Position numbers and translations under genes: made by a program. This document shows, in pieces, positions 3,115 to 36,378 of a stretch of DNA of 64,000 nt (positions are counted from its first letter, which is position 1; the number at the start of each line of letters is the position of its first letter). The notes beneath the pieces are model-generated. The model worked only from the letters and a program-made list of their open reading frames with translations, made no database searches and was not told the origin of the DNA. This stretch comes from Candidatus Nomurabacteria bacterium (GTDB lineage: Bacteria; Patescibacteriota; Minisyncoccia; Phycocordibacterales; SBAW01), in assembly GCA_943349945.1 (NCBI GenBank), contig CALQZS010000001.1, forward strand, positions 130,803 to 194,802, in the 5' to 3' direction.

Positions 3115-3195
3115 ATACATACCCACAAGTATACCCCCAAAATCAAAATCCCCACCGCAAGGGTGGGGATTTTGCATACACAAGAGTGCGAGTGC

Positions 3196-14027: not shown

Positions 14028-14036
14028 TGTGGTAAA

Positions 14037-14474
14037 TTACATCTTCCTCGAGTCATACGCCCAATGCAACAGCGCTTGCCGCTGTTTTGGGCGACAAAAA
14101 ATATCTCCAGTTCTACAATTATTTTTGATTTGCATTATATGCCTACGCATAGCGAGCCACCTTTTTATTTGCTTCTCGTCATCATCGGTCCTACGACCCA
14201 TAAAATATCTGCAGTACCACTGAAACCACCCGCGCGGGTCTTGCGGATGTATCCAGCCTTTTGCCTGCCATACCGCAAGCGACTGACTCGCGTTTATGCC
14301 AAAGTAATTCAGCTCTTTGTGCCGCTTCCCATCGGGTGATAATTTTGCACTCTTCCACCAACCTTTTGGGAACTCCTTTGGCTTGTCAGAAAAATATAAT
14401 CCACCGAACACACCAAGCTCGAGCATCTCTTTTGGCGTCAGGTCCGGCGTAAAGCGCGGGTCGAATTTCGTCAT
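14037..14474 (-). CDS. Conserved-looking hypothetical protein
   Basis: 145-aa soluble Trp-rich ORF (GWWKSAKL, RGWFQWYCRYFMGRR); family not recognised. Confidence 0.5.
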   Translation of the reverse strand: MTKFDPRFTPDLTPKEMLELGVFGGLYFSDKPKEFPKGWWKSAKLSPDGKRHKELNYFGINASQSLAVWQAKGWIHPQDPRGWFQWYCRYFMGRRTDDDEKQIKRWLAMRRHIMQIKNNCRTGDIFCRPKQRQALLHWAYDSRKM

Positions 14475-14480
14475 AGTTTG

Positions 14481-15245
14481 TTATTTCCTCGGCAATGGGA
14501 TAAATATACTTGTTTTCCTTTTGTACTCTGCAAACTCAGGGTTCCCCTCCAGTTTCTTTTCAAGCATCGGAACGCCAGACACTTTCAAGATCAAAAAAGT
14601 TATAGTCATAGGCCCAACAATACCAAGCCAGGCGCCGGGTACAGAGAGAGCGATGAGCCACAGCCCCCACCACTGCACTACCTCGCCAAAATAATTTGGA
14701 TGACGAGTGTACGCCCACAACCCGCTTTGCATCAACTTTCCCTTGTTCTCTGGATTTTTAATAAACCGCGCAAGTTGTGCATCGCCCAAAGCTTCAAAAT
14801 AAAAACCAACAAGCCACACAGCTACGCCTAGAAAATCGAGCAGCACAAGACTCGGCCCAGCATTTTTGTTGATAAGCAGTACCGGCGAAACAATGAGGAA
14901 CAAAAACAGGCCTTGCAAAAGATACACTTGAAAATACGAACGGATATAAAACCACTTGCCCCATTCTTTCCTCCAAGCTAGATAGCGATAGTCCTCTGCT
15001 TTGCCTTTGTTGCGTCTGTGTATGTGCCACGCTAAACGCAAACCCCAAATACTTACCAACACTCCTACCAACATCCCTCGTATACCAGAATCACCGGAAA
15101 GAAAAAAGGATGCCCCTGTCATCAGTACAAACCCGAGCCCCCACGCCACATCGGCCACATCGTTTCTTTTCCTAATCAAAGAAACCACGAACCATAGGCT
15201 CATGTACACAAGCAGTATGGCGATAAGAGTTACAAAATAACTCAT
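14481..15245 (-). CDS. DUF1295 / steroid 5-alpha-reductase-like membrane protein
   Basis: Motifs ADVAWGLGF, YRYLAWRKEWG and GLWAYTRHPNYFGE. The start at 15245 (MSYFV) overlaps the upstream stop by 4 nt. Confidence 0.75.
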   Translation of the reverse strand: MSYFVTLIAILLVYMSLWFVVSLIRKRNDVADVAWGLGFVLMTGASFFLSGDSGIRGMLVGVLVSIWGLRLAWHIHRRNKGKAEDYRYLAWRKEWGKWFYIRSYFQVYLLQGLFLFLIVSPVLLINKNAGPSLVLLDFLGVAVWLVGFYFEALGDAQLARFIKNPENKGKLMQSGLWAYTRHPNYFGEVVQWWGLWLIALSVPGAWLGIVGPMTITFLILKVSGVPMLEKKLEGNPEFAEYKRKTSIFIPLPRK

Positions 15246-15640
15246 AAACCGATCTTGGTTGCGATGAAGTAGGTTACCGCAGAAACAGACGCCGCGAGCA
15301 CTGCACCCCACACTAAGTCAACGATGGTTACAAGAAGCGGCCAATCTTTGGTGACGGCAAGGTTAGTAAGGTCGTACGTTGCATAACAAACCAAACCAAA
15401 TAGCGCACCGAACAAAAGTGCGTGCGTCCATGAATTCTTCTCTATGGCCGGCATAATTACAAAAACCACAAGACCGACAACAAACAAAAGATAAAAGATA
15501 ATAGCCGCCGTCCAGTTTACATCTGGCTTTAGGAGCGGACCGATTTGTTTAGCGTAAAAACCCTTTGCAACGAGTCCAAGCCACACCATGTCGATGGCAA
15601 AGAAAACAGGGAGTGCTATTGCATAGAGTTTTATGAACAT
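15242..15640 (-). CDS. DUF2177-like small membrane protein
   Basis: 132 aa with four predicted TM segments, and AIDMVWLG and YATYDLTN motifs. Confidence 0.6.
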   Translation of the reverse strand: MFIKLYAIALPVFFAIDMVWLGLVAKGFYAKQIGPLLKPDVNWTAAIIFYLLFVVGLVVFVIMPAIEKNSWTHALLFGALFGLVCYATYDLTNLAVTKDWPLLVTIVDLVWGAVLAASVSAVTYFIATKIGL

Positions 15641-15651
15641 AAAAGATAGGA

Positions 15652-16302
15652 TTAATTAATAATTTCCACCAACACTTCATTGCGATACATCCACGGTGGA
15701 GTCCATGGTGCGCTGTATCCAGCGTATGCAGTGCTTCCCTTTGTCGCCACTCCATCACGGGCAAGTGCCGAAGCTAATTTTTCTTGCATGTCTTTTACCC
15801 GCGTATCCGAGCGATACCCCGAGAATTGCAGTACTGCATATTTCTTGGTAGGGATCATCACGATTTTCACTCTCGGATCATTTGGTGTCGGTAATGTTTC
15901 AAGGGTGTACGAGCGGGGCATACCAAAAGATATTATTTGCGAGTCACCATCAGTCGTCGCTACTACCGGTGCAGTCATAGCAATATTTTCTGATGTTTTT
16001 TCGCCTCCTACTTTTTGCGCGATGACTGGAACGGTCATCGCTATACTTTCTTTTTTTGTATTTCCGCCAAAGATATACCCAGCAACAATTCTAAAACCAT
16101 TATTCATAGATTCTCCATAAGAACCCTTTACCGTAGTCTGCGCTACGATATGTGCCGGATATTCTCGTATTTCATATCCATCTTTTATCTCAATGACAGT
16201 ATAGTCAGCTTGCTCAACACGCGAACCAAAAAATCCTGAGATAGACCAAAGCACCACAATAACAAGCAAAGCGATAAGTATAGTGCTCATATTTTTATTC
16301 AT
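15652..16302 (-). CDS. SOUL heme-binding family protein with N-terminal anchor
   Basis: YEIREYPAHIVAQT...FRIVAGYIFGGN...IAMTVPV...IAMTAPV pattern typical of SOUL/HBP. Confidence 0.75.
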   Translation of the reverse strand: MNKNMSTILIALLVIVVLWSISGFFGSRVEQADYTVIEIKDGYEIREYPAHIVAQTTVKGSYGESMNNGFRIVAGYIFGGNTKKESIAMTVPVIAQKVGGEKTSENIAMTAPVVATTDGDSQIISFGMPRSYTLETLPTPNDPRVKIVMIPTKKYAVLQFSGYRSDTRVKDMQEKLASALARDGVATKGSTAYAGYSAPWTPPWMYRNEVLVEIIN

Positions 16303-16393
16303 ATAGCTTTAGTATATAATAGTATATACTAAACTATAATAATATTAGTTTAGTATATGCATTAACAATATTTAATCAATTTAAAATAAATAT

Positions 16394-16795
16394 ATGCAAA
16401 ATATCGTAGAAACAGCTGTCGCAGCAGGATCATTTAAAACACTGGTCACTGCAGTGCAAGCGGCAGGATTAGTAGACACTCTATCTGGTGCAGGTCCCTT
16501 CACTGTATTTGCTCCAACTGATGAGGCTTTCGCCAAAATTCCAAAAGAGACTCTCGACGCAGTCCTTGCGGATAAAGCAAAGCTAACATCTATACTTACG
16601 TACCATGTGGTGGCAGGAAAAGTAATGGCTTCTGATGTAATGGGCCTGACTTCTGCAAAGACAGTACAAGGTGATGAAGTTAAAATAGAAACTGCAGATG
16701 GAGTTATGGTAAACGACGCCAAAGTAGTACAAACAGACATAGAATGCACAAACGGAGTAATCCATGTCATCGATTCAGTCTTGATGCCAAAATAA
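16394..16795 (+). CDS. Fasciclin (FAS1) domain protein
   Basis: Motifs [17 protein letters not shown] and [13 protein letters not shown]. Confidence 0.9.
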
Positions 16796-16813
16796 ATACA
16801 TCCGAAATAAAAA

Positions 16814-16850
16814 TAAAAAACTCTAACTTTTGTTAGAGTTTTTTATTTTT
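16814..16850. terminator. Bidirectional terminator between the convergent fasciclin and PCD genes
   Basis: A-run, then CTCTAAC-tttt-GTTAGAG, then a T-run. Confidence 0.8.
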
Positions 16851-16855
16851 ATTGA

Positions 16856-17245
16856 TTAGGCGTCTATTTTTGCCGCAAGAATAAAATCATTTTGAGAGAG
16901 TCCGTTAATTGCATGGGTGGACAGCGTGAGCTCTACAAATTTGTAGTTTTTCAGATATATGTCCGGATGATGCCCCTCTGATTCAGCCAAAACGCCAACC
17001 TTATTTACAAAAACAAGAGCTTCATTGAAGTCCTTAAAACTATATCGCTTGGCGATACTTTTAGCATCAAGCGAAATATCCCAGCCGGGAATTTGCTTGC
17101 ATAATATATCTGCCTCTATCTTTGAAAAAGGAATGACACCACCATCGCATGCCATGCATTTTTGTTGAGTCAGTGGCGAGTTAGTTTTAGGAGTAGGGGC
17201 CTGACTCTGTATAGTTGTATGTTCCATATGCTTGTAGTATAGCAA
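16856..17245 (-). CDS. Pterin-4-alpha-carbinolamine dehydratase (PCD/DCoH) with N-terminal extension
   Basis: The C-terminal ESEGHHPDIYLKNYKFVELTLSTH is the PCD signature. Confidence 0.8.
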   Translation of the reverse strand: MLYYKHMEHTTIQSQAPTPKTNSPLTQQKCMACDGGVIPFSKIEADILCKQIPGWDISLDAKSIAKRYSFKDFNEALVFVNKVGVLAESEGHHPDIYLKNYKFVELTLSTHAINGLSQNDFILAAKIDA

Positions 17246-17268
17246 AATTAAGAATGGCTACAAATTTT

Positions 17269-18939
17269 TTATTTCGTATCAATATGATTCCACGCAAAAC
17301 CCTTGTCTCCATACACTTTTTTACCTGGGTTTAAAATAGCAAGCGGGTCAAAAATATCTTTTGTCTTTTCAAAGAGACGTACGATCTCAGGGGTAAACAT
17401 CTGCGAAAGGTACGAGGTACGTAAAAGTCCGTCATTATGTTCTCCAGACATAGAACCTCCATACTGAAATACGAGAGTATAGACTTCATCCATGAGTGTA
17501 TGGAGAGTCTCAACTATTCCTTCTTTATGAATGTCAATAAGCGGAATAATATGAAAGTTTGCATCTCCCATATGTCCGGCCACAGTATAAATAAGATCAT
17601 ATTTCGAAAAAATAATTTCAAGTTTGGGAAGAAACTCCGGGAGATCTTTTGTGTGTACGACAATATCATCAATTGTGGGTGCCGTTCGATACCCTCGCAA
17701 CTTCTGGCGAAGCAGGTTGAAGCTTTCGCGCCTGAATGTCCAATACTTTTTTGCTTCTTGTTCCGAGTGCGTCAATGTAATAGGAAATCCGAATACCTTC
17801 ATCTCGTTATATGCTGACTGTACCTGCTCTGCAACTTCTTCTTCAGTATCCCCTGCAAATTCTGCCATGAGAATTATCTTTGGAACTCCGCCAGTGATTG
17901 CCATCCAAAACTCAGGCAAAAATTGGAACCCGAGCGTCAACATAGTACCCCCCATGCTTTTTGCAATTGAACCAAAGAATTTAATCGCTATTTTAAACGT
18001 ATGATCATCATAAGATTCGATGGTTTCAGGTGTATGTTTTAAAAGTCTTGGAATTATTTCTCCTAGTTGCGTTGTGGCTGGCAAAAACATAACGAGCATT
18101 CTGGAATGTTTTTTGGGGACAATTCCACTCAATGTCGCTTCAGTCACACAGGCAAGGGTTCCCTGACTGCCCACAACGAGCTTTGATAGGTCAAATACTC
18201 CTGATTCTTTATCGTAGACATTCCAAAGATAGTACCCTGAAGAATTTTTTGTTACTGTCGGTTTTGCTTGTTGCAGTACATCATAGTTGTCCTTTACAAG
18301 GGCAAATATCTCTCGATGAATGCGCCCGCTTTCAGTTTGTTCTTCGCATTTTGCGATAAGTTTCTCTGCATGAAGTGGTTCTAGAACATCTTCTTCTCCA
18401 TTTGCAAATACAACACGAAGCGAGCGAACATACTTTTCCGTCTTTCCATAGGTAAGTGTCTTTTCACCTCCTGAGTTATTAGAGACAATACCTCCAATCG
18501 CAGCCAAATCACGAGACGCCGGATAGCTTGGCAAAAGCCAGCCGTGCGCAAGAGTCTTTTTCTCAAAATCACTATAGTATACCCCCGGCTCTGTTATGGC
18601 TTCTGTGTCGGTGACAGAAAATACATGATTCATGTATCTCATTGTGTCTACGACGATGGATTCCGAAAGTGGGCCACCGGTCATACAGGTACCGGCGGCA
18701 CGCATGGTGAGGGATAACGGTACACCCTGATCTATATCTTTAGTTTTTTTTGCATGCACATAAGCAACAAGTTTTGCAATGTCTTCTTTACTTTTTGGGT
18801 AGACAACAATGCGGGGTTTTACATAAAAAAGGCTTGTGTCTCGCGCAGCTTTTTCTCGATCACTGTCTAAGATAGAAATATCTCCTTTGATTATTGTACG
18901 CAAATCACCAGCGACATCCGTATAAAAAATTTCATTCAT
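17269..18939 (-). CDS. FAD-linked oxidase (GlcD-like FAD-binding dehydrogenase)
   Basis: 556 aa with an N-terminal FAD-binding PCMH-type region (RAAGTCMTGG, IVSNNSGGEK). Confidence 0.75.
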   Translation of the reverse strand: MNEIFYTDVAGDLRTIIKGDISILDSDREKAARDTSLFYVKPRIVVYPKSKEDIAKLVAYVHAKKTKDIDQGVPLSLTMRAAGTCMTGGPLSESIVVDTMRYMNHVFSVTDTEAITEPGVYYSDFEKKTLAHGWLLPSYPASRDLAAIGGIVSNNSGGEKTLTYGKTEKYVRSLRVVFANGEEDVLEPLHAEKLIAKCEEQTESGRIHREIFALVKDNYDVLQQAKPTVTKNSSGYYLWNVYDKESGVFDLSKLVVGSQGTLACVTEATLSGIVPKKHSRMLVMFLPATTQLGEIIPRLLKHTPETIESYDDHTFKIAIKFFGSIAKSMGGTMLTLGFQFLPEFWMAITGGVPKIILMAEFAGDTEEEVAEQVQSAYNEMKVFGFPITLTHSEQEAKKYWTFRRESFNLLRQKLRGYRTAPTIDDIVVHTKDLPEFLPKLEIIFSKYDLIYTVAGHMGDANFHIIPLIDIHKEGIVETLHTLMDEVYTLVFQYGGSMSGEHNDGLLRTSYLSQMFTPEIVRLFEKTKDIFDPLAILNPGKKVYGDKGFAWNHIDTK

Positions 18940-18972
18940 ACATTTATTATAACATTATCGGACTCATTTTAC

Positions 18973-19445
18973 TTAGCGTTTGCTTCGAGTTTTTCTTCGC
19001 TGTATATACCAGTACACATAGAGAGAAAGTAGAAGGATTATATTCGGAATAAATATGATTGGTTGACCCCAGGATATTCCATTGATATGGAAGTCTGAAA
19101 TCGGCCACAAAAAAGGCGTTGGGAAAAAGGCAAAATCGTGTGTAGGTATATCAACTAAAATATGAAGTGGCCACGCGAGCGTAAGCTTGGCAAAATGCTT
19201 TTTGCCAAGAATAACGCATAAACGACCAAGCTATGAGTAATACCATAGACGGTGAAGACGTACGGCGGAATCGTTTCTAAGCTTGGCCGACCCATTGCGC
19301 CACCAGAAACTAGATTTATTATAAAAAGAGGCGCGAACGCCAAGAGGTCTGGCCCTATACCAAAGAGAAATGCAGTCACATAATCCCGCCTGCGCATGCG
19401 ACCAAATGCAACACCTCCATATAATCCGTGAGAGATAATGTCCAT
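18973..19445 (-). pseudogene. Membrane-bound metal-dependent hydrolase (DUF457/YdjM-like) split by a 1-nt frameshift
   Basis: The track ORF 19155..19445 stops at 19155. An adjacent frame continues open as ...KKHFAKLTLAWPLHILVDIPTHDFAFFPTPFLWP... to a stop at 18973-18975. The frames join at a homopolymer (T5 on plus, 19199-19203). Confidence 0.65.
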
Positions 19446-19473
19446 ACATTTATTATACTATTTGTATGTGAAA

Positions 19474-20934
19474 TTATTTTTTAGACAGATACTCCTTTGC
19501 AATTTTTAAATAATTTTCTTTTTTCTTTTTTTCCATCTTATCAAAAAGTCTCGGCATCATCGATAGTCGATGATTACTTGTGAAAAAGTCACGGTGACTA
19601 GCTATGAAATTCCAATACAGTGCAGTCCACTTCTCTTCCCAATCGCCACCAGTATAATCTGACATTTTTTTAATGTAATTGCTACCCGAGATATATGGTT
19701 TGGTAGCAAAAATACCACCATCAGCGAACTGACTCATCCCATATACATTTGGTACCATTACCCAATCATACGCATCAACATACATTGCCATAAACCATTG
19801 ATACACATAATCGGGATTAACCTGAGAAAGCAACATAAAGTTACCGATAACCATCAATCGTTCGATATGATGATTGTATCCATAGTGCAGAGCTTTCTTG
19901 ATAGCGCTGTCGACCGGAGCAATACCAGTATCTCCAGTCCAAAATCCTATTGGCAAGTTGCGGGAATGTTTCCAAAAATTCTTCGTGCGCATGACGGCAC
20001 CATCACACTCATAGGAAGCGCGCATAAACTCACGCCACCCAATGATCTGTCGTACAAAACCTTCGAGTGAATTTATAGGTATAGCGTGAGTATCTGCATA
20101 TACTATTGCACTATCGATTACCTGCCTTGGGTCGAGCAATCCAATATTTATGAGAGCTGACAATGTAGAATGAAAAAGCCGTACGCTTTTCGTAGAAAGC
20201 GCGTCCTCATACACACCAAAATCTGCAAAGCGGTCTTCTAAAAATACCTGCAAAAATTTTTTGGCATCCTTGTGTGTATATGGTAGCCAGCAGGCTATCT
20301 CTCCATATTTTTCAGCTTGTATTGTATCGAGCCACTTCTTCATTTTTGATACATCAAAATCATTTTCAAAAACAGTATCCTTGGGGAGAGTTGTATCTCG
20401 AGCAAGTTTTTTTCGATTGTCTGCATCAAAGCTCCACGCTCCCCATCTGGGCTTTCCATGTCCGTCCATCAAGATACCCAAGTCCACTCGAATTTTCTTG
20501 TAGAACATCGCCATATTTTTCTTTGAGCTTTTGTATCTTGCTATTGATTCCTCCTTTGGCAAAATAAAAAGTGGTGACTCATACCAAACCCGCTTTATCT
20601 TGGAAGCTGTTATAGCCCGCTCCAAATAGAAGTCAGTAGTATCGACAATATGAAGTTCTTGTATCCCTTCTTTTTTTAAATAATCAAAAATATCTTTCGT
20701 CTTCGGATACTGTTCAATCGTCAGGCATTTTACTTTGTACCCCTCTTTTTTCAAAAGCTCTGCATATGCGCCCATACTTAATTTGTGCAAAATTAGCTTT
20801 TGATAATGAATGGGGTTGTGCGACAGAATCAAGGGCTCTTCAATCAAAAAAATAATCCGTGCTTTTTGTATAGCCGGTGATTTTATAAAAAGTTGATGAG
20901 GATAGACCAATGTTGCTTCTTTCATAGTATTCAT
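19474..20934 (-). CDS. Cryptochrome/photolyase-family protein (photolyase-related, COG3046-like)
   Basis: 486 aa with an N-terminal LVYPHQLF start and a C-terminal W/Y-rich FAD-binding-like region. Confidence 0.7.
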   Translation of the reverse strand: MNTMKEATLVYPHQLFIKSPAIQKARIIFLIEEPLILSHNPIHYQKLILHKLSMGAYAELLKKEGYKVKCLTIEQYPKTKDIFDYLKKEGIQELHIVDTTDFYLERAITASKIKRVWYESPLFILPKEESIARYKSSKKNMAMFYKKIRVDLGILMDGHGKPRWGAWSFDADNRKKLARDTTLPKDTVFENDFDVSKMKKWLDTIQAEKYGEIACWLPYTHKDAKKFLQVFLEDRFADFGVYEDALSTKSVRLFHSTLSALINIGLLDPRQVIDSAIVYADTHAIPINSLEGFVRQIIGWREFMRASYECDGAVMRTKNFWKHSRNLPIGFWTGDTGIAPVDSAIKKALHYGYNHHIERLMVIGNFMLLSQVNPDYVYQWFMAMYVDAYDWVMVPNVYGMSQFADGGIFATKPYISGSNYIKKMSDYTGGDWEEKWTALYWNFIASHRDFFTSNHRLSMMPRLFDKMEKKKKENYLKIAKEYLSKK

Positions 20935-20937
20935 CTA

Positions 20938-21204
20938 TCAGGTTGATAGTATTAAAATCAAAATAGCGAAGTATACGATCAGATAAAAACGATAGAAATT
21001 AATCACCCGCAACTCTGCACTCTTCGTGCGCTGATGAAAGCCAAAAAGCACTTTGATCTCCTCCCAAAAAACGGGCTTTACATTAATCCACCAGCTATCA
21101 GTTTGATAGACCATCTTCCTAAATCGACTGCGAAACAATCCCAAAGGAAAACTCCAGATAAAAAACGCAACGATGGCAATCGTGTGTATGGTTATAGTAT
21201 CCAT
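20938..21204 (-). CDS. Hypothetical small membrane protein
   Basis: 88 aa with two hydrophobic segments. Its stop lies 3 nt upstream of the photolyase-like gene's start. Confidence 0.45.
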   Translation of the reverse strand: MDTITIHTIAIVAFFIWSFPLGLFRSRFRKMVYQTDSWWINVKPVFWEEIKVLFGFHQRTKSAELRVINFYRFYLIVYFAILILILST

Positions 21205-21325
21205 TTATGCCTCTTCAGTCCTTACTTCTATTATAAACTTTATTCTCTCAAGAGCTACCATTCCCTCCCCCTCCTTTTTGCGAACCTCGACCTTCAGGGG
21301 CAAAAGATACTTTGGCCATAAATTT

Positions 21326-22225
21326 TTACTCCACCGGACAGGTGTTTTTGCCCATCGCGGCGTAGAACCCACACCAGCTAAATATTGCTTCAAAGAATGC
21401 AAGGCCGGAGAAGAAGATGAGGATGGGGCTCCAGGTGGTGGTGATGGCCCATAGGAGCAATGCAATGCCAATGGCGAGGCGGACGAGTCGGTCGGACTTG
21501 CCGATATTTTTAGCAACTCCACGCACAGAGTTTTTAGCAACCTTTTTCAAAATCGCGCGGTAGACGAAGCCCACGATGAACGCAAGAATATATATAATGA
21601 CAATCAGTCCCCACCCAAAGGGCGAGAGGATAAAGCCGATTGGCGATTCGTTAAAAAAATCCTTTTTAATCTGCGGGATGAGCGTGAGTGCGTTTAAGCC
21701 TTCTTTGCCGTCAAACTTCTCTATCTCACCGATGGCGAGCGAGTACTTGCTGTCGTTGTTGGGGCTTGTCACACGGATCTCGTAGATGCCTACATCAGCA
21801 CGCGCTTTATACTCTGGTCCTTGCCAGTAGGTGTCGTAGCCAAATGGTTCAAAAAACTGTTTCCATGCAAATGTCGCGCCATCGAGCACGGCGATTTGCT
21901 TGCCGTCTTTTAGTACCACAGCGGAGACATCTTTCTTTTGCCCTGCAATGTCTGGCACCAAGACTCCGACATACAGATTAAACGCTTGCTTCGCATCTAT
22001 AGTATATACATCCGGCTCGCCCATGAGCTTGCCATAATATGCTTTGGAAACTTCGGGGTCAGTAACTGATGTAAGTCTATCCTCTGTAATTCGAGGCTGA
22101 TGTGCGGAAGCCAAGCTCGGAGTCAACGTAAATATAGAGACAAACAACGCAAGCAGCGTGAGTGATAGTAGTTTGGAATTTATGTTATATCCGAAAACGT
22201 TCAAGATGCACCTAGTATACAGCAC
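21326..22225 (-). CDS. Secreted/membrane protein with a C-terminal DUF2892 (YgaP-like) domain
   Basis: Signal peptide, an extracytoplasmic domain, TM segments, and a C-terminal ...RLAIGIALLLWAI...WCGFYAAMGKNTCP. Confidence 0.6.
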   Translation of the reverse strand: MLYTRCILNVFGYNINSKLLSLTLLALFVSIFTLTPSLASAHQPRITEDRLTSVTDPEVSKAYYGKLMGEPDVYTIDAKQAFNLYVGVLVPDIAGQKKDVSAVVLKDGKQIAVLDGATFAWKQFFEPFGYDTYWQGPEYKARADVGIYEIRVTSPNNDSKYSLAIGEIEKFDGKEGLNALTLIPQIKKDFFNESPIGFILSPFGWGLIVIIYILAFIVGFVYRAILKKVAKNSVRGVAKNIGKSDRLVRLAIGIALLLWAITTTWSPILIFFSGLAFFEAIFSWCGFYAAMGKNTCPVE

Positions 22226-22230
22226 CTAGT

Positions 22231-22599
22231 CTAGAAGTAAGGGATGAGTAAACTAAGTCCCTTCCCCATCAGAAAGCTGTATATCAGCAACCCAATGAAC
22301 GGTAGAGGCACCAGCCATAAAAACCATCTTGGATGGTCAGGTTTTTTTGAAAAAACCATGTACCAATTCAACGCAAATATAAGAGGTGTACAAATTGACA
22401 AGAGAGCACTTGTACCAAAACCGAGCAGTCCAAACACTTCCCCACTACTCCATACGAAAGAGTCGTCCTGCACAATAAACAAAAAGGCTACGCTCGACCA
22501 AACAACAGCTATTAGAAACACCTTTACTAAAAGCGCTTCGTAAATTCCAATAGCAGCCAAAACTATTTTTACAGGCGTGTTGATGGTGAATCTATGCAT
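22231..22599 (-). CDS. Hypothetical polytopic membrane protein
   Basis: The start at 22599 (MHRFTINTPVKIV...) was chosen because the longer track ORF would overlap a tRNA. Confidence 0.5.
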   Translation of the reverse strand: MHRFTINTPVKIVLAAIGIYEALLVKVFLIAVVWSSVAFLFIVQDDSFVWSSGEVFGLLGFGTSALLSICTPLIFALNWYMVFSKKPDHPRWFLWLVPLPFIGLLIYSFLMGKGLSLLIPYF

Positions 22600-22627
22600 G
22601 TAGGTAATTATATACCCATAACCGTTG

Positions 22628-22714
22628 CGGAGAGAGCGAGATTCGAACTCGCGGGCCCAATTAAGGGCCGACAGTTTAGTAAACTGTTGATTTAAACCAC
22701 TCATCCATCTCTCC
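22628..22714 (-). tRNA. Type II tRNA-Ser; anticodon reads ACU by hand folding
   Basis: Fold: GGAGAGA-TG-GAT-GAGTGGTTTAA-ATC-A-ACAGT-TTACTAA-ACTGT-C-GGCCC-TTAATT-GGGCC-C-GCGAG-TTCGAAT-CTCGC-TCTCTCC-G. It has a long variable arm and a G73 discriminator. Confidence 0.8.
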
Positions 22715-22926
22715 ATATATTCGCACTGCTCAAATGGAGCTGCTCGGCGCAGATCGATGGAATCGTGGTCGGCACATGGTGCCGGCTTGAGAAGAAGCAG
22801 TTCTTCTCTTCGCCCATCTCATCCATCTCTCCTTGCCCTTGAGGATACTACAGTATATAGAGGAGCTCAATTAAAGCCTTTTTGAGCGTGTAAAGTAGCC
22901 CCTATTATGGTACTGTGGCGTGTATT

Positions 22927-23011
22927 GGAGACGTGTCAGAGTGGTCGAATGTGCCTCCTTGCTAAGGAGGTAGGGCGCAAGCCCTCGTGGGTTCGAATCC
23001 CACCGTCTCCG
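22927..23011 (+). tRNA. tRNA-Ser (GCU)
   Basis: Acceptor GGAGACG...CGTCTCC, anticodon arm CCTCC-TTGCTAA-GGAGG, long variable arm, T arm GTGGG-TTCGAAT-CCCAC. Confidence 0.9.
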
Positions 23012-23298
23012 CAAAGCTAAATTTTGATATATTCTCCTATCTAAATTTTGCTTATGTGTGAACGGGAGAGGGATTCGAAGGACGGAAGAAAAGCTCTGGG
23101 AGAGCTTTTCTGAGTCGGGGTCGCGAGATTTTTCAGCAGAAAAATACTTGTGACCGAATCCCACTGTCCACAAATACTACGCGGCGTAGAATTGAGTCGA
23201 AGCCGAATCGTTTTAATCGTCTCCGCTTAGTTTTTTGTAGTGTTCTACTGTAGAGCATTTTATGTGGTATAAACAAGCCATATCATTAATTTTTTAAT

Positions 23299-23931
23299 AT
23301 GTCTCGACAAACGATATTAATATTAGTCCTTATTGTTTTGGTGGTTGGCGTAAGCGGGTATTGGTATTTTAGTCACCAAAGCAAGGTTACCGACGTACCT
23401 ACAGAGGTGGTTGCAACGACAAATACTACCCATGTAGAAGAAGTAAAGGTGGAAAATAATCGAAAAAGTGCCGTAACGTCTAATGGTTTGGAATTTGACC
23501 CGGCTAAGGTACAGCCCGGGGAAAAATTCGGTGCGTTTACAGTTATTGCTTCGAGCGCTTATACGATTGGCGATGAACACTCTTACTCAGTAAGTTTCAA
23601 AGGACCTGTAAATATCCAGGGTGTATTAAACAATTTTGAGCCTAGTATGTGTGGTGCAGTACTGGAGATTTCTACATCAACTTCCGAAACCTTGCCTAGA
23701 GTGAGCGGTGAAAAGGTGGGGAGCATGAATGTATACCTTGACCTAGATGGTTTGCCAGAGGCAGAGCGTGTTACTTATACGAGCGCCGGTTTTACAACCC
23801 CTTCCGGGCAACTACTCCAAGAGGGTGATGTGTTAGAAGTAACTGTTGATACGTTTTTGGCTTCGCACCAAGGGAAAGATTGTAGCGGCAAGAGGATACA
23901 GGTCACCTCATTTAAGAAGCTTTCTATCTAA
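23299..23931 (+). CDS. Hypothetical membrane-anchored extracytoplasmic protein
   Basis: N-terminal TM segment (ILILVLIVLVVGVSGYWYF); no motif recognised. Confidence 0.55.
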   Translation: MSRQTILILVLIVLVVGVSGYWYFSHQSKVTDVPTEVVATTNTTHVEEVKVENNRKSAVTSNGLEFDPAKVQPGEKFGAFTVIASSAYTIGDEHSYSVSFKGPVNIQGVLNNFEPSMCGAVLEISTSTSETLPRVSGEKVGSMNVYLDLDGLPEAERVTYTSAGFTTPSGQLLQEGDVLEVTVDTFLASHQGKDCSGKRIQVTSFKKLSI

Positions 23932-24075
23932 CTGCGCAGCAAAATAGAAAACTTCGCCTCAGTACATATTTGTGACCGAGTCTCACTCTCTCTCCGCCAT
24001 ACATATACAACTTTTTTAAGAGTTGATATCCGCATTGACAATATCAACTAAACAGTATAAACTGTTGACATTCAT

Positions 24076-25257
24076 ATGAGCAACATCAATAGACCAAAAA
24101 TAGGTCGCTACGTAGCCCAAAAAGAGGGGTTCAAATCCTTCACCCCTTATGACTTTCCACCCAAGGAAGGCTTTGTTATTAGTCCTAAATTGTATAAAAA
24201 ACTTGAGGATGCGATTCGACTAGTCGGCAAGCTTGACGGTATCACTCGCCTGCTACCCGACAAAGACTTCTTTCTTCTTATGTTCATCAAAAAGGACGCC
24301 GCCTATTCAAGTCAAATAGAAGGCACCAAAGCTACCCTACAGGATGCCGTGGCGGCACCAGTTACAGAAGAAAAATCACGTCGACATCCTGATGTAGATG
24401 ACATAGTCCATTATGTTGAGGCCGTAAACTATGGCATCAAACGAAGCGAGACACTCCCTATTTCTCTGCGGTTAGTACGAGAGATACACGAGAAGTTAAT
24501 GACAGGTGCACGCGCCACACAACATGCCTATCCTGGCGAATTTAGACGTTCCCAAAATTGGATTGGGGGTAAAATTCCTCAAGATGCCTCCTTTGTGCCA
24601 CCTGCGCCGCACGATATGGACAAATCACTGGATGATTTGGAAAAATTCATCCATGCAAAAGATGATTACCCCTCACTTATAAAAGCGGGTCTTTTGCATG
24701 CCCAATTCGAAACAATTCACCCATTTACAGACGGCAACGGACGTACAGGACGCATGCTTATTGCTATGTACATGCACCACACAAAACTTCTTGAATTACC
24801 TATATTGTATCTATCTAGTTACTTCAAAAAGTATCAAAAACTCTACTACCAAAAGCTTCAGAATTACCATGAGGAAGATTCCGATATAGAAGGTTGGCTA
24901 GAGTTCTTTCTTGAAGGTGTTGCTGAAATTGCTGAATCTTCAATCGAAACCTGTACTAATATCACAGCCCTTCGAGACCGAGACTTTGCGAAAATGCAAA
25001 AACTTGGCAAACAGTCTGCTGAATCAACACTCGAAGTGGTGCGCAAACTCTTCAGCCAACCAATAGTCGGGGTTGCAGAAATAATAAATTGGACTGGGTT
25101 TAGCCCACAAGGGGCGTACAACATGATTGAGCGACTTAAAGCTCTAGGAATTCTAGAGCCTCTTGGTGATGCAGAATATGGACAAAAATACATCTATGCA
25201 GACTACTACAGGCTCTTTGATGATACTTTTAATACAACAAAAGTAAGCAAAAAATAG
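24076..25257 (+). CDS. fic: Fic family AMPylase, class II (N-terminal inhibitory helix)
   Basis: Active-site HPFTDGNGRTGR and an N-terminal SSQIEG that fits the (S/T)xxxE(G/N) inhibitory motif; C-terminal wHTH-like tail. Confidence 0.9.
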   Translation: MSNINRPKIGRYVAQKEGFKSFTPYDFPPKEGFVISPKLYKKLEDAIRLVGKLDGITRLLPDKDFFLLMFIKKDAAYSSQIEGTKATLQDAVAAPVTEEKSRRHPDVDDIVHYVEAVNYGIKRSETLPISLRLVREIHEKLMTGARATQHAYPGEFRRSQNWIGGKIPQDASFVPPAPHDMDKSLDDLEKFIHAKDDYPSLIKAGLLHAQFETIHPFTDGNGRTGRMLIAMYMHHTKLLELPILYLSSYFKKYQKLYYQKLQNYHEEDSDIEGWLEFFLEGVAEIAESSIETCTNITALRDRDFAKMQKLGKQSAESTLEVVRKLFSQPIVGVAEIINWTGFSPQGAYNMIERLKALGILEPLGDAEYGQKYIYADYYRLFDDTFNTTKVSKK

Positions 25258-25258
25258 T

Positions 25259-25828
25259 ATGAAAAAACTCATCCTCGCTTCTACATCACCCCGACGCAAG
25301 GAGGTGCTCGAGAAAACAGGCCTATCGTTTGAGATTGTGCCAAGCGACTACGAAGAAGACATGACCCTCGACATGCCGCCCGAGGAGTTGGCCGAGTATC
25401 TTTCGGCTGGCAAGGCGCGGGCCGTTGCGGCCAAAAACCCAGGAGCCGTAGTTATTGCGGCCGACACCTTTGTAGTGCACGAGCATCATCGCCTGGGCAA
25501 GCCACACACCAACGAGCGCGCAAAAGAGATGCTAGAGATGCTCAGCGGCAAAGCACACTATATAGTAACCGGTGTGACTATTGTCGCTGGCGACCAAGTG
25601 TGCTCCTTCCACGAAAAGACTTCGGTGCACATGGCAGAGTTGTCGGAAGCGTTAATAGAGCAATATATAGCCACCGGCGAGCCACTCGACAAAGCTGGCG
25701 CCTATGCGCTGCAAGAGCTGGGCGCTATGCTTATAGAAAAAACAGAGGGTGACTTTTTTAATGCCATGGGCCTGCCGCTCCGCCGGCTTGTGCACGAGCT
25801 CCGGGCCTTTGGGGTGGAGGTTTTGTAA
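25259..25828 (+). CDS. maf: Maf-like nucleoside triphosphate pyrophosphatase
   Basis: The N-terminus LILASTSPRRKEVL and GAYALQELG are Maf signatures. Confidence 0.9.
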   Translation: MKKLILASTSPRRKEVLEKTGLSFEIVPSDYEEDMTLDMPPEELAEYLSAGKARAVAAKNPGAVVIAADTFVVHEHHRLGKPHTNERAKEMLEMLSGKAHYIVTGVTIVAGDQVCSFHEKTSVHMAELSEALIEQYIATGEPLDKAGAYALQELGAMLIEKTEGDFFNAMGLPLRRLVHELRAFGVEVL

Positions 25829-25927
25829 GACAGAACATAACCTCTTGCGGTACTTATAATGCATGGTACTGTATCGCCAGTAGCCGTGCGTATTCCATTA
25901 CCCACAAAAGTTGGAGAGGAACGATCC

Positions 25928-26149
25928 ATGAACAGCGCGCACATCTCCGGCTCGCAACACACTCCTACGACAGTAGGCGGGGGCACGCTCCACGACATCG
26001 CCGAGGACACGGTCTCATCTACCAACGACCCTTCCTTATTTCCTCGGTCTGTAACAGGCTCCACCTTCACCTGCGACCATGGAAATTGCGGGTGCATGGT
26101 GCAAATCGTGTTCAGGACGGTCACCCGAAACAACCCCTTCGACAACTGA
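25928..26149 (+). CDS. Hypothetical 73-aa protein
   Basis: GGAGAGG RBS 7-8 nt upstream of the ATG at 25928. The ORF ends just before the terminator at 26155-26187. C-terminal CDHGNCGC. Confidence 0.35.
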   Translation: MNSAHISGSQHTPTTVGGGTLHDIAEDTVSSTNDPSLFPRSVTGSTFTCDHGNCGCMVQIVFRTVTRNNPFDN

Positions 26150-32402: not shown

Positions 32403-32767
32403 TTTACTCTCCGTTTTTTTGAGCGTTGGATTTTGCCAACGCTCGGGTTTAGAACATCAGGGTGCAATTTCTTGCGATCCCTCTTGCCGCACCGAGCATT
32501 AGAGTGCATCCATCTGCACTAGGCAGACAGGCTCATGACTCGGTAAGGCGAAGAGGAACAACAAAGGTGATCTTTCGATCGTTTGTTATTTCCCGACGCC
32601 AATATTTGGGTCGGGATCCCGACTTTGCGGGATCTATTCGCTATTCTTTTGTCAAAGAATGTCTCTCTTTCGAGAGAAGTCGGATGGCAAAATGGGCCAA
32701 ATATAAAAGATGTGCCTTTTGCCGTCCGGCTTCTCCCTACGACTCTCTCCTCTAAGAGGTAATCGTT
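32403..32767 (-). ncRNA. Unclassified, highly structured leader RNA of about 365 nt
   Basis: At least seven hand-verified hairpins, for example 32662-32677, 32643-32660, 32615-32634, 32682-32727, 32479-32556, 32561-32586 and 32421-32444. No credible ORF. Confidence 0.5.
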
Positions 32768-34116: not shown

Positions 34117-36378
34117 ATGGAGCTTGCCGACCTGCTTACCCAACACTTCCGCCTGAGCGAGCCACACAGGCAAGCGCTGCACAAGCTCGGCATACACAGC
34201 ATTGGCGACCTTGTGCACCACTTCCCCTCTCGCTATGAGGCGCCAGGCAATGAGTCGGCCATTGCGGGGCTCACTCTTGGCATGGACGCAGCCGTTACCG
34301 GGGTACTAGAAAAATTGGAGACAAAAAAGTCGTGGAAGCGGCGCATCCCCGTGTCGGAAGGATATTTGCGTGACAGCAGCGGACACATCAAGCTGATGTG
34401 GTTTAACCAGCCATACATAGCCAAGATGTATATGGACGGCACGACGGTGCGTGCCACGGGCAAAGTGTCGGGCTCGGCCGGAAAACTCTACCTCGCCAAC
34501 CCGCAGCTGGAAAAAGTTTCTGCTACAGAAGACGAATTGTTTACGGAGCAGCAGCATCCTGAAGAAAATGGTCTGGCCTCGCTTGCCCGACGTCCCGGCT
34601 CGCCGGGACTTGCGGGCGACGAGGAGAACCGAGGACCTTTTCGGAAGGATGCTGCTGCGAAGTTGTTCGCCGTCTATCCCGAAAGCCGCGGGGTTACATC
34701 GCTGTGGCTACGGCACGCAATACAAAAAATACTCTCCCACTCTGTACAAGGGTTACCCTTGGTAGAGCAGGTGCAAGACCCCATCCCGCCCGAGATTTTA
34801 AAACGCTACAACCTCCCCACCCTTAAAGCCGCTTTGGTGTGGATCCACACCCCCGAAAAACAAAAAGACGCCGACGCGGCGCGCAAGCGCTTTGCCTTTG
34901 AAGAAGTTTTTTTGATCCAGCTCGAGCGCAGGCAAGAGCGCATGCGCGCACTGCACGAGCAAAGCTTTGCGGTGGATGCACCGCCCCAGGCAATTGCCGA
35001 GTTTATGCAGACCTTCCCCTTTGCGGCAACGGGTGCGCAGCAGCGCGCGGTCGAACATATATTGACCGACATGCGCTCCGGCCAACCTATGTCGCGCCTG
35101 CTCGAGGGCGACGTAGGCAGCGGCAAAACTGCAGTAGCCGCCACCGCCGCATACGCGGCGGTACGCACACGCCCCACAAACCAAAACTTCGGCACACTCC
35201 AAGTAGCCTACATGGCGCCCACCGAGATTTTGGCCAAGCAACATTTCGAGTCGTTTATAAAATATTTTGTCCCCTTCCCCATAAACATCGGACTCATCAC
35301 CGGCTCGGGCTGTTTTAAATTCCCCTCTAAAGCGAGGCGAGGCGAAGCCACCACCATCTCGCGCACGCAACTGCTCAAGTGGGTGGCGGGGGGCGAAATT
35401 CCAATTTTAATTGGCACGCATGCACTTATTGAAAAGGCAGTGCAGTTTAAACACCTGAGTCTGGTGGTGATAGACGAGCAGCATCGCTTTGGCACCAACC
35501 AGCGCAAAAAGCTTGCCCGCAAAAACGGCGACGCGCGGATCCCCCACCTTCTTTCTATGACCGCCACCCCAATACCCCGCACCTTGGCGCTGACCGCCTA
35601 CGGCGACCTAGACCTGACGCTACTCGACGAGATGCCCGCAGGCCGCAAACCAATTATTACGGAAATTGTAAAACCCACAGAGCGTTCGCGAGCGTACGCA
35701 AAAATGCACGAGCAGCTGGCGGAAGGTCGCCAAGCGTATGTGATTTGCCCGCGCATAGACGAACCAGACCCAGAAAAAGCATTCGCTCTTCAAGCCAAGT
35801 CTGTCACCGCCGAGGCCAAGCGACTTAAAAAAGAGGTCTTCCAACAATATGAACTTGCGATATTACACAGCAAGATGACCCCAAAAGAAAAAGACGAGGT
35901 TATGGCGCGCTTTGCCCGGCACGAGATAGACATCCTGGTGGCCACGTCTGTGGTCGAGGTGGGGGTCAACGTGCCCAACGCGACTATGATCTTTATCGAA
36001 GGTGCCGAGCGTTTTGGCCTAGCCCAGCTGCACCAGCTGCGCGGGCGCGTGGTACGCTCCAACCACCAGGCATACTGTTTTGTCTGCCCCGAAAGCCGCG
36101 GAGAACATACACTCGCAAGACTCAAAGCCTTGGTAACGGCAAAAAATGGGTTCGAGTTGGCCGAGCAGGACTTGATGCAGCGCGGCCCCGGCGAACTTTC
36201 GGGCCGCAAACAATGGGGCATCTCGGACATCGGCATGGAAGCGCTTAAAAATATAAAACTGGTAGAAGCGGCACGCACTGAAGCGCTCAACATAATAGAA
36301 ACAGATGCCGAGCTTGGGCACTACCCACTCCTTAAAGAGGCACTTGCCCTAAGGGCCAAGGCACTACATTTCGAGTGA
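34117..36378 (+). CDS. recG: ATP-dependent DNA helicase RecG
   Basis: Wedge domain plus SF2 motifs (GDVGSGKT, DEQHRFG, TATPIPR, QLHQLRGRVVR). Confidence 0.9.
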   Translation: MELADLLTQHFRLSEPHRQALHKLGIHSIGDLVHHFPSRYEAPGNESAIAGLTLGMDAAVTGVLEKLETKKSWKRRIPVSEGYLRDSSGHIKLMWFNQPYIAKMYMDGTTVRATGKVSGSAGKLYLANPQLEKVSATEDELFTEQQHPEENGLASLARRPGSPGLAGDEENRGPFRKDAAAKLFAVYPESRGVTSLWLRHAIQKILSHSVQGLPLVEQVQDPIPPEILKRYNLPTLKAALVWIHTPEKQKDADAARKRFAFEEVFLIQLERRQERMRALHEQSFAVDAPPQAIAEFMQTFPFAATGAQQRAVEHILTDMRSGQPMSRLLEGDVGSGKTAVAATAAYAAVRTRPTNQNFGTLQVAYMAPTEILAKQHFESFIKYFVPFPINIGLITGSGCFKFPSKARRGEATTISRTQLLKWVAGGEIPILIGTHALIEKAVQFKHLSLVVIDEQHRFGTNQRKKLARKNGDARIPHLLSMTATPIPRTLALTAYGDLDLTLLDEMPAGRKPIITEIVKPTERSRAYAKMHEQLAEGRQAYVICPRIDEPDPEKAFALQAKSVTAEAKRLKKEVFQQYELAILHSKMTPKEKDEVMARFARHEIDILVATSVVEVGVNVPNATMIFIEGAERFGLAQLHQLRGRVVRSNHQAYCFVCPESRGEHTLARLKALVTAKNGFELAEQDLMQRGPGELSGRKQWGISDIGMEALKNIKLVEAARTEALNIIETDAELGHYPLLKEALALRAKALHFE
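34548..34658. repeat. 111-nt imperfect palindrome embedded in-frame in recG
   Basis: A perfect 13-bp outer stem (34548-34560 with 34646-34658) plus inner stems centred on CCCGGCtcGCCGGG. It encodes E144-A181. Confidence 0.75.

Follow-up and report, generated by a model that had tools for sequence, protein, structure and literature searches.

The recG locus and its palindromic insert

The window analysed in this work, a 64-kb stretch of DNA considered at its full length, contains a recG gene that carries a 111-nt palindromic element in frame. The features at this locus and a possible relative located upstream are as follows.

34117..36378, + strand: host gene recG, an ORF of 753 aa, with the element in the linker that joins the wedge domain to the helicase core
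34548..34658, + strand (orientation set by the asymmetric core): whole palindromic element, 111 nt, supported by the hairpin fold and covariance model R1
34548..34564, + strand: left outer arm GCAGCAGCATCCTGAAG, copy-specific, pairing with the right arm save for a 3x3 internal loop
34565..34576, + strand: conserved core on the 5' side, AAAATGGTCTGG, in which a T is bulged after AAAA, identical or nearly identical in all family members
34577..34628, + strand: G+C-rich apical hairpin, 52 nt in the subtype present in the window, from the fold and family comparison
34629..34641, + strand: conserved core on the 3' side, CCGAGGACCTTTT, whose unpaired GAG faces the T of GTCTGG, from family comparison
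34642..34658, + strand: right outer arm CGGAAGGATGCTGCTGC, from the repeat arms, the fold and outer-stem covariation
34544..34548 and 34658..34662, + strand: flanking pentamers CGGAG and CGAAG, an imperfect direct repeat and possible target-site duplication
32674..32735, no strand assigned: intergenic hairpin of 62 nt, GAGAAGTCGGATGGCAAAATGG..CCTTTTGCCGTCCGGCTTCTC, possibly a degenerate relative, from R1 and the fold

The RecG product has the Pfam domains RecG_wedge (residues 18-137), DEAD (307-490), Helicase_C (535-648) and RecG_dom3_C, and it matches the PDB RecG chain 1gm5 with E = 8e-117. The palindrome occupies codons 144-181. Relative to E. coli RecG, the product has 37 extra residues, with an unaligned segment of 66 aa in the query versus 29 aa in the chain. 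Among orthologues this linker is hypervariable in both length and sequence. The AlphaFold model of RecG, which is only moderate as a whole (pLDDT 63), shows pLDDT values of 28-38 and no secondary structure at residues 138-201, and the wedge-helicase linker that holds the palindrome is predicted on this basis to be disordered. In other genomes, different palindromes ('families E and F') were observed in the same recG linker. The first-pass annotation had described an in-frame element of 37 codons, quoted its peptide, placed it as an insertion between the wedge and the helicase core of a typical RecG and proposed modelling it as a possible surface loop; all of these points agree with the present results.

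Hairpin structure of the window copy

The inverted-repeat arms of the element (34548-34568 and 34638-34658) are 21 nt long and 86% complementary, and their outermost 13 bp pair perfectly. When folded as RNA, positions 34548-34658 form a single unbranched hairpin of 45 pairs at -72.2 kcal/mol, compared to a mean of -40.2 +/- 4.0 for shuffled sequences (z = -8.1, with none of the 200 shuffles equal to the element). The z-score is -7.4 with DNA parameters and -8.4 for the opposite strand. Both the repeat arms and the fold agree with the palindrome and the perfect 13-bp outer stem originally proposed. The inner stems listed with it were also recovered, with the exception of the apical stem, which lies one base off in the minimum free energy structure, at 34592-34598 and 34603-34609 around a 4-nt loop.

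A known RNA family was rejected as an explanation, as the Rfam 15 scan of 34400-34800 yielded no match at the gathering score and only chance-level hits (E > 1). A hammerhead or kink-turn at the CUGAUGA/CUGAAGA internal loop was also dropped, since a three-way junction is missing, the presumed G.A pairs are in fact Watson-Crick pairs, and the loop varies between copies.

Against covariance model R1 the window element scores 68.3 bits (E = 4e-14). No second close copy was found by blastn within the 64-kb window. A weak R1 match at 32665-32744 (27.3 bits, E = 3.7e-4; fold z = -6.1) corresponds to the hairpin at 32674..32735, which is not covered by any long ORF and has no GTCTGG/CCGAGGAC, and its membership in the family is uncertain.

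Dispersal of the element among genes and genomes

A search of metagenome contigs with the core pattern AAAAYRGTCTGG ... CCGAGGACYTTTT matched at least 120 contigs. Among the matches listed, recG holds 7 of the 122 copies and other loci the remaining 115; 89 of the 122 are contained in ORFs of at least 150 aa, and ten hosts were confirmed by Pfam: PolA, RecJ, UvrC, MnmA, Tgt, TsaD, Dus, ParB, LepA and a methyltransferase. Copies inside ORFs occur in both orientations and in several frames. Some copies are intergenic and terminator-like, and several contigs contain two to three copies. The source names of the RecG homologues, together with GTDB record titles, point to Patescibacteria (Adlerbacteria, Paceibacterota, Kaiserbacteria), not Rickettsia or Rickettsiales.

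In its hosts the whole palindrome is extra sequence, adding 26 aa to TsaD, 34 aa to LepA and 37 aa to RecG in comparison with solved homologues. The insertion sites fall between Pfam domains in PolA, LepA, UvrC and RecG, and in alignment gaps relative to solved structures in TsaD, TGT and LepA. Since the extra length equals the whole palindrome with both arms included, the idea that the arms are inverted duplications of the host target was rejected; L207, in which both arms are missing, speaks against it too. A regulatory hairpin specific to recG had been considered because nearly all expanded RecG linkers fold, and was discarded as 115 of the 122 listed matches lie outside recG. A phage origin was likewise rejected, with no matches in viral contigs that were scanned twice for the element. 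One candidate, L092, proved to be a false positive: it is a native LigA motif that has no arms and is unmatched by the model.

A model search of 1.38 Mb flanking recG in 80 genomes found copies confined to the recG linker except in L070, which points to low copy number in many lineages. Sliding-window folding of 1.45 Mb returned mostly convergent tRNA pairs and terminators rather than additional elements. Some element sites look long-lived rather than freshly hit. Six copies from AT-rich contigs (GC 31-36%) are alike over the whole element, arms included, while the contigs have no other homology.

Conserved core and covarying arms

Family members are about 85-125 nt long and follow a common plan, in which the 5' core, a variable apical hairpin and the 3' core are enclosed by an outer stem of 15-20 bp. 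The apical hairpin ranges from 16 to 52 nt across subfamilies. The sequence of the outer stem differs from copy to copy while its complementarity is kept. Over 101 copies, 86% of outer-stem cells are paired versus 65% in shuffled sets, and covariation reaches 0.544 versus 0.161 after shuffling (0 of 500 shuffles attain the observed value), with slid controls at 0.11-0.19. For pairs of copies that agree at 97% or more of the inner module, the median arm identity is 45%, compared to an all-pair background of 37.5%. Arms common to several loci were found in a single AT-rich lineage only.

The 77-nt inner module of the window copy is identical to that of L003 at 76 of 77 positions, whereas the two recG genes share only 53% identity at their 4-fold sites. 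Among recG genes in general, the inner module is 92-99% identical versus 53-63% at 4-fold sites, even when it is inverted. With respect to the host gene, 57 copies lie in the opposite and 33 in the same orientation. G.T mismatches outnumber A.C mismatches on the element's own strand by 174 to 76, counts that are phylogenetically non-independent; the ratio is 87:33 in copies opposite to the host gene, so the excess tracks the strand of the element.

Turnover among close relatives

RecG orthologues that are 87-94% identical contain the element in forward or inverted orientation, a one-arm remnant of it, or no element at all, and a clade at 55-58% identity has a short linker that lacks it. For instance, the window copy is forward and the copy in L208 is inverted (63 bits on the minus strand). 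One-arm remnants were recorded in L207 and L209, although L207 is given as having neither arm in the comparison with L206. In that comparison, L206 equals L207 plus 114 nt, and the insert is flanked by GCGGAG, which is single in the shorter allele. This one filled/empty pair could equally represent a precise deletion between direct repeats. Flanks resembling CGGAG/CGRAG were seen by eye in many copies; an automated count gave no dominant pentamer, and the automated census of flanks and target-site duplications is too noisy because arm indels and internal loops blur the ends. The RecG-linker 'families B, C and D', initially kept apart, proved to be copies of this element in inverted orientation or in another frame.

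The first-pass annotation had proposed to check whether the segment is an indel among RecG orthologues and whether further copies occur. Both checks bear it out, as close orthologues differ exactly at this segment, and coding and intergenic copies are found in related genomes outside the window. The peptide is not conserved, as other frames and the other orientation of this DNA are used elsewhere, and the existence of other copies together with a symmetry well above the shuffled level also agrees with what had been proposed.

Peptides encoded by the element

The same DNA encodes different peptides depending on its host, such as ..ENGLxE..RGPF.., ..EKVLGS..PDHF.., ..KKSSGRL..GQTIF.. or ..SGRPEGGDPRTFS.. 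Each copy has about four of six frames open (modal value), versus about two in shuffles. Most frames of the element lack stop codons and the frame of its host is kept, which indicates that it is translated through; this predicted ribosomal read-through is the simplest reading. The element is not a protein-level feature, and its conservation is at the nucleotide level.

Interpretation and alternative explanations

Copies lie in either orientation at numerous loci that are unrelated, and close relatives have gained, lost or inverted them. We consider it likely that the hairpin in the window is a resident copy of a dispersed non-coding palindromic family of Paceibacteria-type Patescibacteria, a selfish or commensal mobile DNA resembling the Rickettsia palindromic elements (RPEs), MITEs and REPINs. 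A hairpin family located in frame within many housekeeping genes of these ultra-small Patescibacteria (CPR) is previously undescribed, and the searchable literature contains no account of such elements in Patescibacteria/CPR.

As mobile DNA, the element would behave selfishly or at most as a commensal. It may spread, or be homogenised, via a folded single-strand hairpin or a cruciform, with a trans-acting enzyme that probably recognises the asymmetric core, i.e. the bulged T and the unpaired GAG. Genic copies would persist only where the peptide is tolerated by the host protein, in disordered loops like the RecG wedge-helicase linker, and the 37-aa RecG peptide would be a passenger and no functional domain. 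Recombination or template switching between the arms could account for both the in-place flips and the complementarity of the arms. No transposase or partner gene for the element was identified; a phmmer search over the 12,464 ORFs of the collected DNA returned a single Y1_Tnp (IS200-like), in L009. This IS200-like element was rejected as the parent IS, as its end hairpins differ and show no convincing match to the core.

A conserved centre with variable termini needs arm-to-arm copying, gene conversion of the centre, or selection. It is possible, and we put it forward tentatively, that the family is no ordinary MITE and forms a self-maintaining hairpin replicator. Directed gene conversion, renewed insertion at hairpin tips, or selection for recognition of the folded ssDNA by a dedicated enzyme would keep its central module near-identical across sites, orientations and genomes. 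The arms would drift yet stay complementary through arm-to-arm copying, and in-place flips would yield two alternative linker peptides in RecG, PolA, MnmA, Tgt and others. Such a family would be the Patescibacteria counterpart of the RPEs, which at one time were described as unique to Rickettsia, and mechanistically distinct from them.

The strongly conserved inner module at orthologous sites is also compatible with a nucleic-acid signal useful to the host. By this account, a structured signal (folded ssDNA, cruciform or RNA) is held at each site by purifying selection and its genic location is a tolerated side effect; possible roles include cleavage by a nuclease or RNase III-type enzyme, termination or stabilisation, and priming or segregation. 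The 76 of 77 identical positions at the orthologous recG site against 53% identity at 4-fold sites argue for it, as do the conservation in more distant orthologues, the strong arm covariation and the G.T excess on the element strand (174:76, from phylogenetically non-independent counts). Arms also tend to be site-specific and common to orthologous sites, e.g. MnmA in L095/L108/L145, and intergenic copies often lie in terminator-like settings of an A-run, stem and T-run. However, orientation relative to the host gene is mixed (57 opposite, 33 same), and this, together with a G.T excess that follows the element strand and not the mRNA strand, makes a role at the mRNA level unlikely. Moreover, RecG genes that are 87-94% identical differ in whether they have the element and in whether it is inverted or truncated, the position of the element relative to gene starts and ends is not fixed, and the AT-rich lineage has whole-element copies at non-homologous loci. 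Overall, we regard a host signal as rather unlikely.

The remaining explanations were judged far less probable. Retention of the open frame and the presence of ..ENGL..RGPF.. in several RecG orthologues would suit an adaptive protein insertion, in which the hydrophilic 37-aa segment is a linker or interaction motif of RecG and its palindromy is incidental. Close relatives, however, encode a wholly different peptide (inverted in L208: EKVLGSPRRPQAPASQDSGQARPDHF) or none, other hosts use other frames, synonymous positions are conserved, and the predicted structure is disordered across the segment, which leaves this reading very improbable. A local quasi-palindrome, created by replication template switching in an unconstrained linker and unrelated to other loci, is compatible with the hypervariability of the recG linker and with the palindromes of 'families E and F' there, but a 25-nt core and its architecture that recur at more than 100 unrelated loci or genes, with the core conserved far above neutral, make it extremely unlikely. 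Errors of MDA or assembly are able to create palindromes; given the in-frame element in well over 100 independent assemblies (ENA, JGI, NCBI, Logan) with consistent orthologous flanks, the chance that a chimeric inverted repeat arose here as an artefact is close to nil.

Comparison with known systems

With mobile palindromic DNA as the preferred reading, the closest parallels are found among several groups of small repeats. Like MITEs, the present elements are small (85-125 nt), hairpin-forming and non-autonomous, contain no transposase ORF, and are dispersed, with some copies inside genes and fused in frame; a short target-site duplication may also exist, given the GCGGAG that borders the insert in the L206/L207 pair. 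MITEs, in contrast, retain the conserved terminal inverted repeats of a parent IS, whereas here the termini vary and a parent IS was not found. A conserved centre with variable arms and flips at orthologous sites is unexpected from classical MITE biology.

REPs and REPINs are mobilised by RAYT (Y1/HUH) transposases, and the ends of IS200/IS605 elements are hairpins. The present family shares with REP/REPINs an imperfect hairpin whose strand is set by extrahelical bases, and with REPINs two inverted half-sites forming a long hairpin whose pairing is preserved over the long term. REPs are extragenic and have GTAG or CGTC heads (PMC3733652), whereas the family described here is mostly genic and its core AAAAYRGTCTGG / CCGAGGACYTTTT has neither GTAG nor CGTC. 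At least one member of the clade, L009, has a Y1 transposase gene; no RAYT was linked to the family.

Fungal mitochondria harbour mobile G+C clusters, double-hairpin elements and 'byp' elements, which are also short mobile palindromes that invade essential coding regions in reduced genomes. These are organellar, and byp elements are bypassed by the ribosome, whereas the frame is open in the present family.

RPE-1 to RPE-10 (Ogata et al. 2000, 2002) are described, in PMC10969869 and PMC3184786, as palindromic repeats without a transposase. The RPE-like reading already offered in the first-pass annotation is supported as an analogy of behaviour. Both families are transposase-free palindromes (about 100-150 bp in RPEs) with many copies in frame in unrelated housekeeping genes, where the extra peptide is compatible with the host fold, and with intergenic copies as well; in both cases the hosts are reduced-genome, host-dependent bacteria. 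The host phylum differs, being Patescibacteria here, and so does the architecture: in the present family an asymmetric centre is conserved, the outer arms are mostly copy-specific and covary, either orientation at one site gives alternative peptides, and the copies in each genome seem to be few in many lineages. The frequency of in-frame RPEs in Rickettsia is considered unusually high, and their counterparts in other prokaryotes have only been speculated upon (PMC10969869).

The element accounts for part of the puzzling variation in length among CPR housekeeping proteins and for part of their low-complexity inserts. Covariance model R1 provides a concrete marker for annotating such inserts, which should not be taken for functional domains. 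The family also offers a tractable case for how hairpin repeats move, flip and stay paired and, if the replicator reading is true, the flips would give housekeeping proteins two alternative linker peptides. To our knowledge, large-scale documentation of in-frame palindromic selfish DNA in essential proteins is essentially confined to Rickettsia. Patescibacteria are a reduced-genome lineage, and an independent, widespread family in this group suggests that such insertion is a repeated feature of small genomes in host-dependent bacteria.

The palindromic element in recG

The 111-nt imperfect palindrome that the first-pass annotation had placed in-frame in recG is genuine, with a perfect outer stem of 13 bp.

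Features of the window
34117..36378, + strand: recG, 753 aa, wedge, DEAD, Helicase_C and RecG_dom3_C domains intact
34548-34658: palindromic element, codons 144-181 of recG
32674-32735: 62-nt intergenic hairpin GAGAAGTCGGATGGCAAAATGG..CCTTTTGCCGTCCGGCTTCTC downstream of the malic-enzyme gene, possible relative (27 bits, z = -6.1)

The arms of the element extend up to 21 nt with 86% complementarity. As RNA, it folds into a single hairpin without branches, with 45 pairs and a free energy of -72.2 kcal/mol, versus a mean of -40.2 +/- 4.0 for dinucleotide shuffles (z = -8.1; 0/200 as stable); the z-scores equal -7.4 with DNA parameters and -8.4 for the complementary strand. All stems proposed earlier were found, but the apical one had been set off by one base and lies at 34592-34598/34603-34609 with a 4-nt loop. 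The suspected insertion relative to typical RecG proteins was confirmed by an unaligned stretch of 66 aa versus 29 aa in the E. coli RecG chain, the 37-aa excess being the length of the element. In an AlphaFold model with 30 orthologues as input (moderate overall quality, pLDDT 63), residues 138-201 are predicted at pLDDT 28-38 without secondary structure, in agreement with a surface loop.

Besides this copy, which is certain, the window contains a weak candidate (model match 32665-32744), the intergenic hairpin, possibly a decayed copy from which GTCTGG/CCGAGGAC was lost. An AT-rich palindrome at 16774-16885 (arms of 54 nt, 76% complementary, 4-nt spacer) lies within a low-GC stretch (14000-26000; GC 0.39-0.46 versus 0.50-0.56 elsewhere), possibly an island of foreign origin.

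The RecG linker across orthologues

The RecG homologues carry source names from Patescibacteria (Adlerbacteria/Paceibacterota), which assigns the window to that group. In the 30-orthologue alignment, the linker is bounded by 'LEKVSAxExxLF' and 'LFAVYPESRG' and remains hypervariable at 87-94% protein identity. At the DNA level, sampled at five loci first and then at 66, nearly all expanded linkers fold as a single long hairpin, while the clade at 55-58% RecG identity has a short linker without a hairpin. These hairpins have a common nucleotide core, GAAAAYRGTCTGG ... CCGAGGACYTTTTC, and outer stems of wholly different sequence with complementarity kept. The linker peptides EKVLGSP..RPDHF and KKSSGRL..GFQTF were rejected as separate families, being the same element inverted.

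Other hairpins occupy the same linker. One type, in which the loop CCTTAACTCARGG..AAGG is conserved and the stems covary, was noted in the nearest species representative to the window (L006, 10400-10504) and in L033, L046 and L047, and yet another, CCTGCRARAGGGAG, in L025 and L028; the linker thus seems to collect several palindrome families. The strongest folds near recG at L059:6781, L065:5851, L068:1201 and others are convergent tRNA pairs with a common bidirectional terminator, not elements.

Copies in other genes and genomes

A scan of JGI/ENA metagenome contigs with the core pattern AAAAYRGTCTGG-N(16-46)-CCGAGGACYTTTT matched at least 120 contigs. By tblastn with the window RecG, recG is the site of only 7 of the 122 matches listed; the other 115 include both coding and intergenic copies, such as the first-pass annotation had proposed to look for. 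Among the matches listed, 89 fall within stop-to-stop ORFs (minimum 150 aa, either strand), and about a quarter appear intergenic, often in a terminator-like context of A-run, stem and T-run. Ten hosts were confirmed by Pfam (TsaD, Dus, MnmA, TGT, SAM methyltransferase, PolA, RecJ, ParB, LepA and UvrC), the PolA copy lying between the 5'-3' exonuclease and the polymerase; IleS, ValS and a MutY-like protein were added by eye. Compared with solved homologues, TsaD (+26 aa) and LepA (+34 aa) contain the entire palindrome with both arms as the excess, and TGT has a larger gap of 51 aa enclosing the element. Orientation and frame determine the encoded peptide, which varies by host: ..(E/Q)NGLxE..TRGPF.., ..SGRPEGGDPRTFSQ.., ..EKVLGS..PQPDHF.. 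or ..KKSSGRL..GQTIF... Most often four of the six frames are open per copy, versus about two in shuffled copies.

Two to three copies per contig were detected by the covariance model in L146, L157, L186, L194, L196, L199, L109, L135 and L156, and six AT-rich contigs (GC 31-36%) have the entire element including arms in common and no other shared sequence. When the model was run over 1.38 Mb of recG surroundings from 80 species representatives, every copy found lay in the recG linker except for two outside recG in L070 (15669-15781 and 17987-18099), so copy number is modest in many lineages. Since L070, with GC of 36-42% and RecG identity of 58%, is a low-GC genome of the distant clade, the family reaches beyond the Adlerbacteria-like clade and over a wide GC range. 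The pattern match at L092:7585-7644 was rejected as a chance match to a native DNA ligase motif (KSPRWAIAFKF..AQTVL), with no arms and no covariance-model match.

Covariation and turnover

In an alignment of 101 copies with gap-free flanks and the hairpin register i+j = 133 imposed, 86% of cells pair, and column shuffles give 65%. Covariation scored 0.544, versus 0.161 in shuffles, 0/500 of which reached it; slid controls gave 0.11-0.19. Pairs 9-24 show four to six pair types each, and core pair 30-104 switches cleanly between A-U (59 copies) and G-C (41), with G-U in one. A bulged T that follows AAAA, together with an unpaired GAG, makes the core asymmetric and thereby defines the orientation of the element.

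Turnover was compared among RecG genes 82-87% identical in nucleotides outside the linker.

Linker states at the orthologous recG site
Element forward: window, L001, L003, L206
Element inverted: L208 (63 bits, minus strand)
Left-arm remnant alone: L207
Right-arm remnant alone: L209
Other hairpin: L006

L206 differs from L207 by exactly 114 extra nt, placed between copies of GCGGAG, which L207 has once, and the window copy is flanked by CGGAG and CGAAG. Such flanks resemble a target duplication of 5-6 bp; the L206/L207 difference may instead be due to precise deletion between direct repeats. By eye, CGGAG-like pentamers adjoin many copies; the automated count gave no one dominant pentamer. At the orthologous sites of MnmA (L095/L145 versus L108) and Tgt (L096 versus L169), the element occurs in opposite orientations with the same arms.

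In L001 (2238-2320), L003 and L206, the full forward element is preceded by a fragment, ..GAAAAGGTCATC.., that encodes the peptide SEKVI and corresponds to the left arm of an inverted copy; L207 (10400-10489) has this fragment alone. Such fragments point to repeated events at one spot. In L117, copies at 1595-1700 (+) and 3163-3267 (-), identical including flanks, are inverted 1.5 kb apart, suggesting either that a larger region was duplicated in inverted form or that the element bounds a composite unit. In different genomes, a UvrC-like gene carries one copy at each of two shared positions (L157:5732-6108 and L194:4217-4611), and the apical parts of the two copies are more alike within a genome than between orthologous copies, suggesting concerted evolution.

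Conserved centre, variable arms and rival explanations

The inner module, comprising the core and apical hairpin, is identical at 76 of 77 nt between the window and L003, versus 53% identity at 4-fold sites in their recG genes, and is 93.5% identical in the inverted L208 copy. Even in orthologues at 72-77% amino acid identity, with 4-fold sites 35-48% identical, the 25-nt core still fits the search pattern. Its conservation is far above the neutral rate. In contrast, median arm identity is 45% in 201 pairs with inner modules at least 97% identical, versus an all-pair background of 37.5%, and two copies in L146 combine an identical 38-nt centre with unrelated arms. Three readings fit this two-layer pattern: the centre may be refreshed by gene conversion or re-insertion, it may be a recognition site under selection, or drifting arms may be kept paired by arm-to-arm template switching (quasi-palindrome correction).

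We consider the element to be probably a non-autonomous palindromic mobile repeat, functionally RPE-like (Rickettsia palindromic element). It would be propagated or homogenised via a folded hairpin recognised by a putative enzyme, and genic copies would be kept only where the passenger peptide lands in a disordered loop. The main rival, in which the conserved module is a folded-DNA or RNA signal useful to the host, appears unlikely. Mismatches on the element's own strand favour G.T over A.C (174 versus 76, counts that are phylogenetically non-independent). The excess is greater where a copy runs antisense to the host gene (87:33) than where it runs sense (47:28; likewise non-independent), which counts against selection on the host mRNA and hints at a strand-specific folded-DNA form. 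Dispersal, covariation, turnover and conservation together essentially exclude in-place template switching without a link to other loci, an adaptive protein insert and an assembly artefact.

Comparison with known elements

The element has no match in Rfam, and our literature search found no account of such elements in Patescibacteria. An IS200-like element (L009:5180-5800; tnpA, Pfam Y1_Tnp E = 5e-42) with flanking hairpins ACTCCGGACT/AGTCCGGAGT lies ~4.3 kb upstream of a recG without the palindromic element; it was rejected as the parent IS, since its end hairpins have no convincing match to the palindrome's core, and its Y1 transposase was the only one seen in the clade. REP/REPIN sequences are extragenic with a GTAG/CGTC head (PMC3733652), and the element differs in both respects. 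It also lacks the conserved terminal repeats of MITEs, and no parent IS was found. The nearest known elements are the Rickettsia palindromic elements (PMC10969869, PMC3184786), and the earlier RPE-like reading holds as an analogy: the behaviour is the same, whereas the phylum and conservation pattern differ. While classical MITEs and RPEs have conserved ends, the Patescibacteria element has a conserved centre and variable arms, and we rate it as a new family of atypical architecture, from a phylum new for such elements and comparable to RPEs by behaviour.
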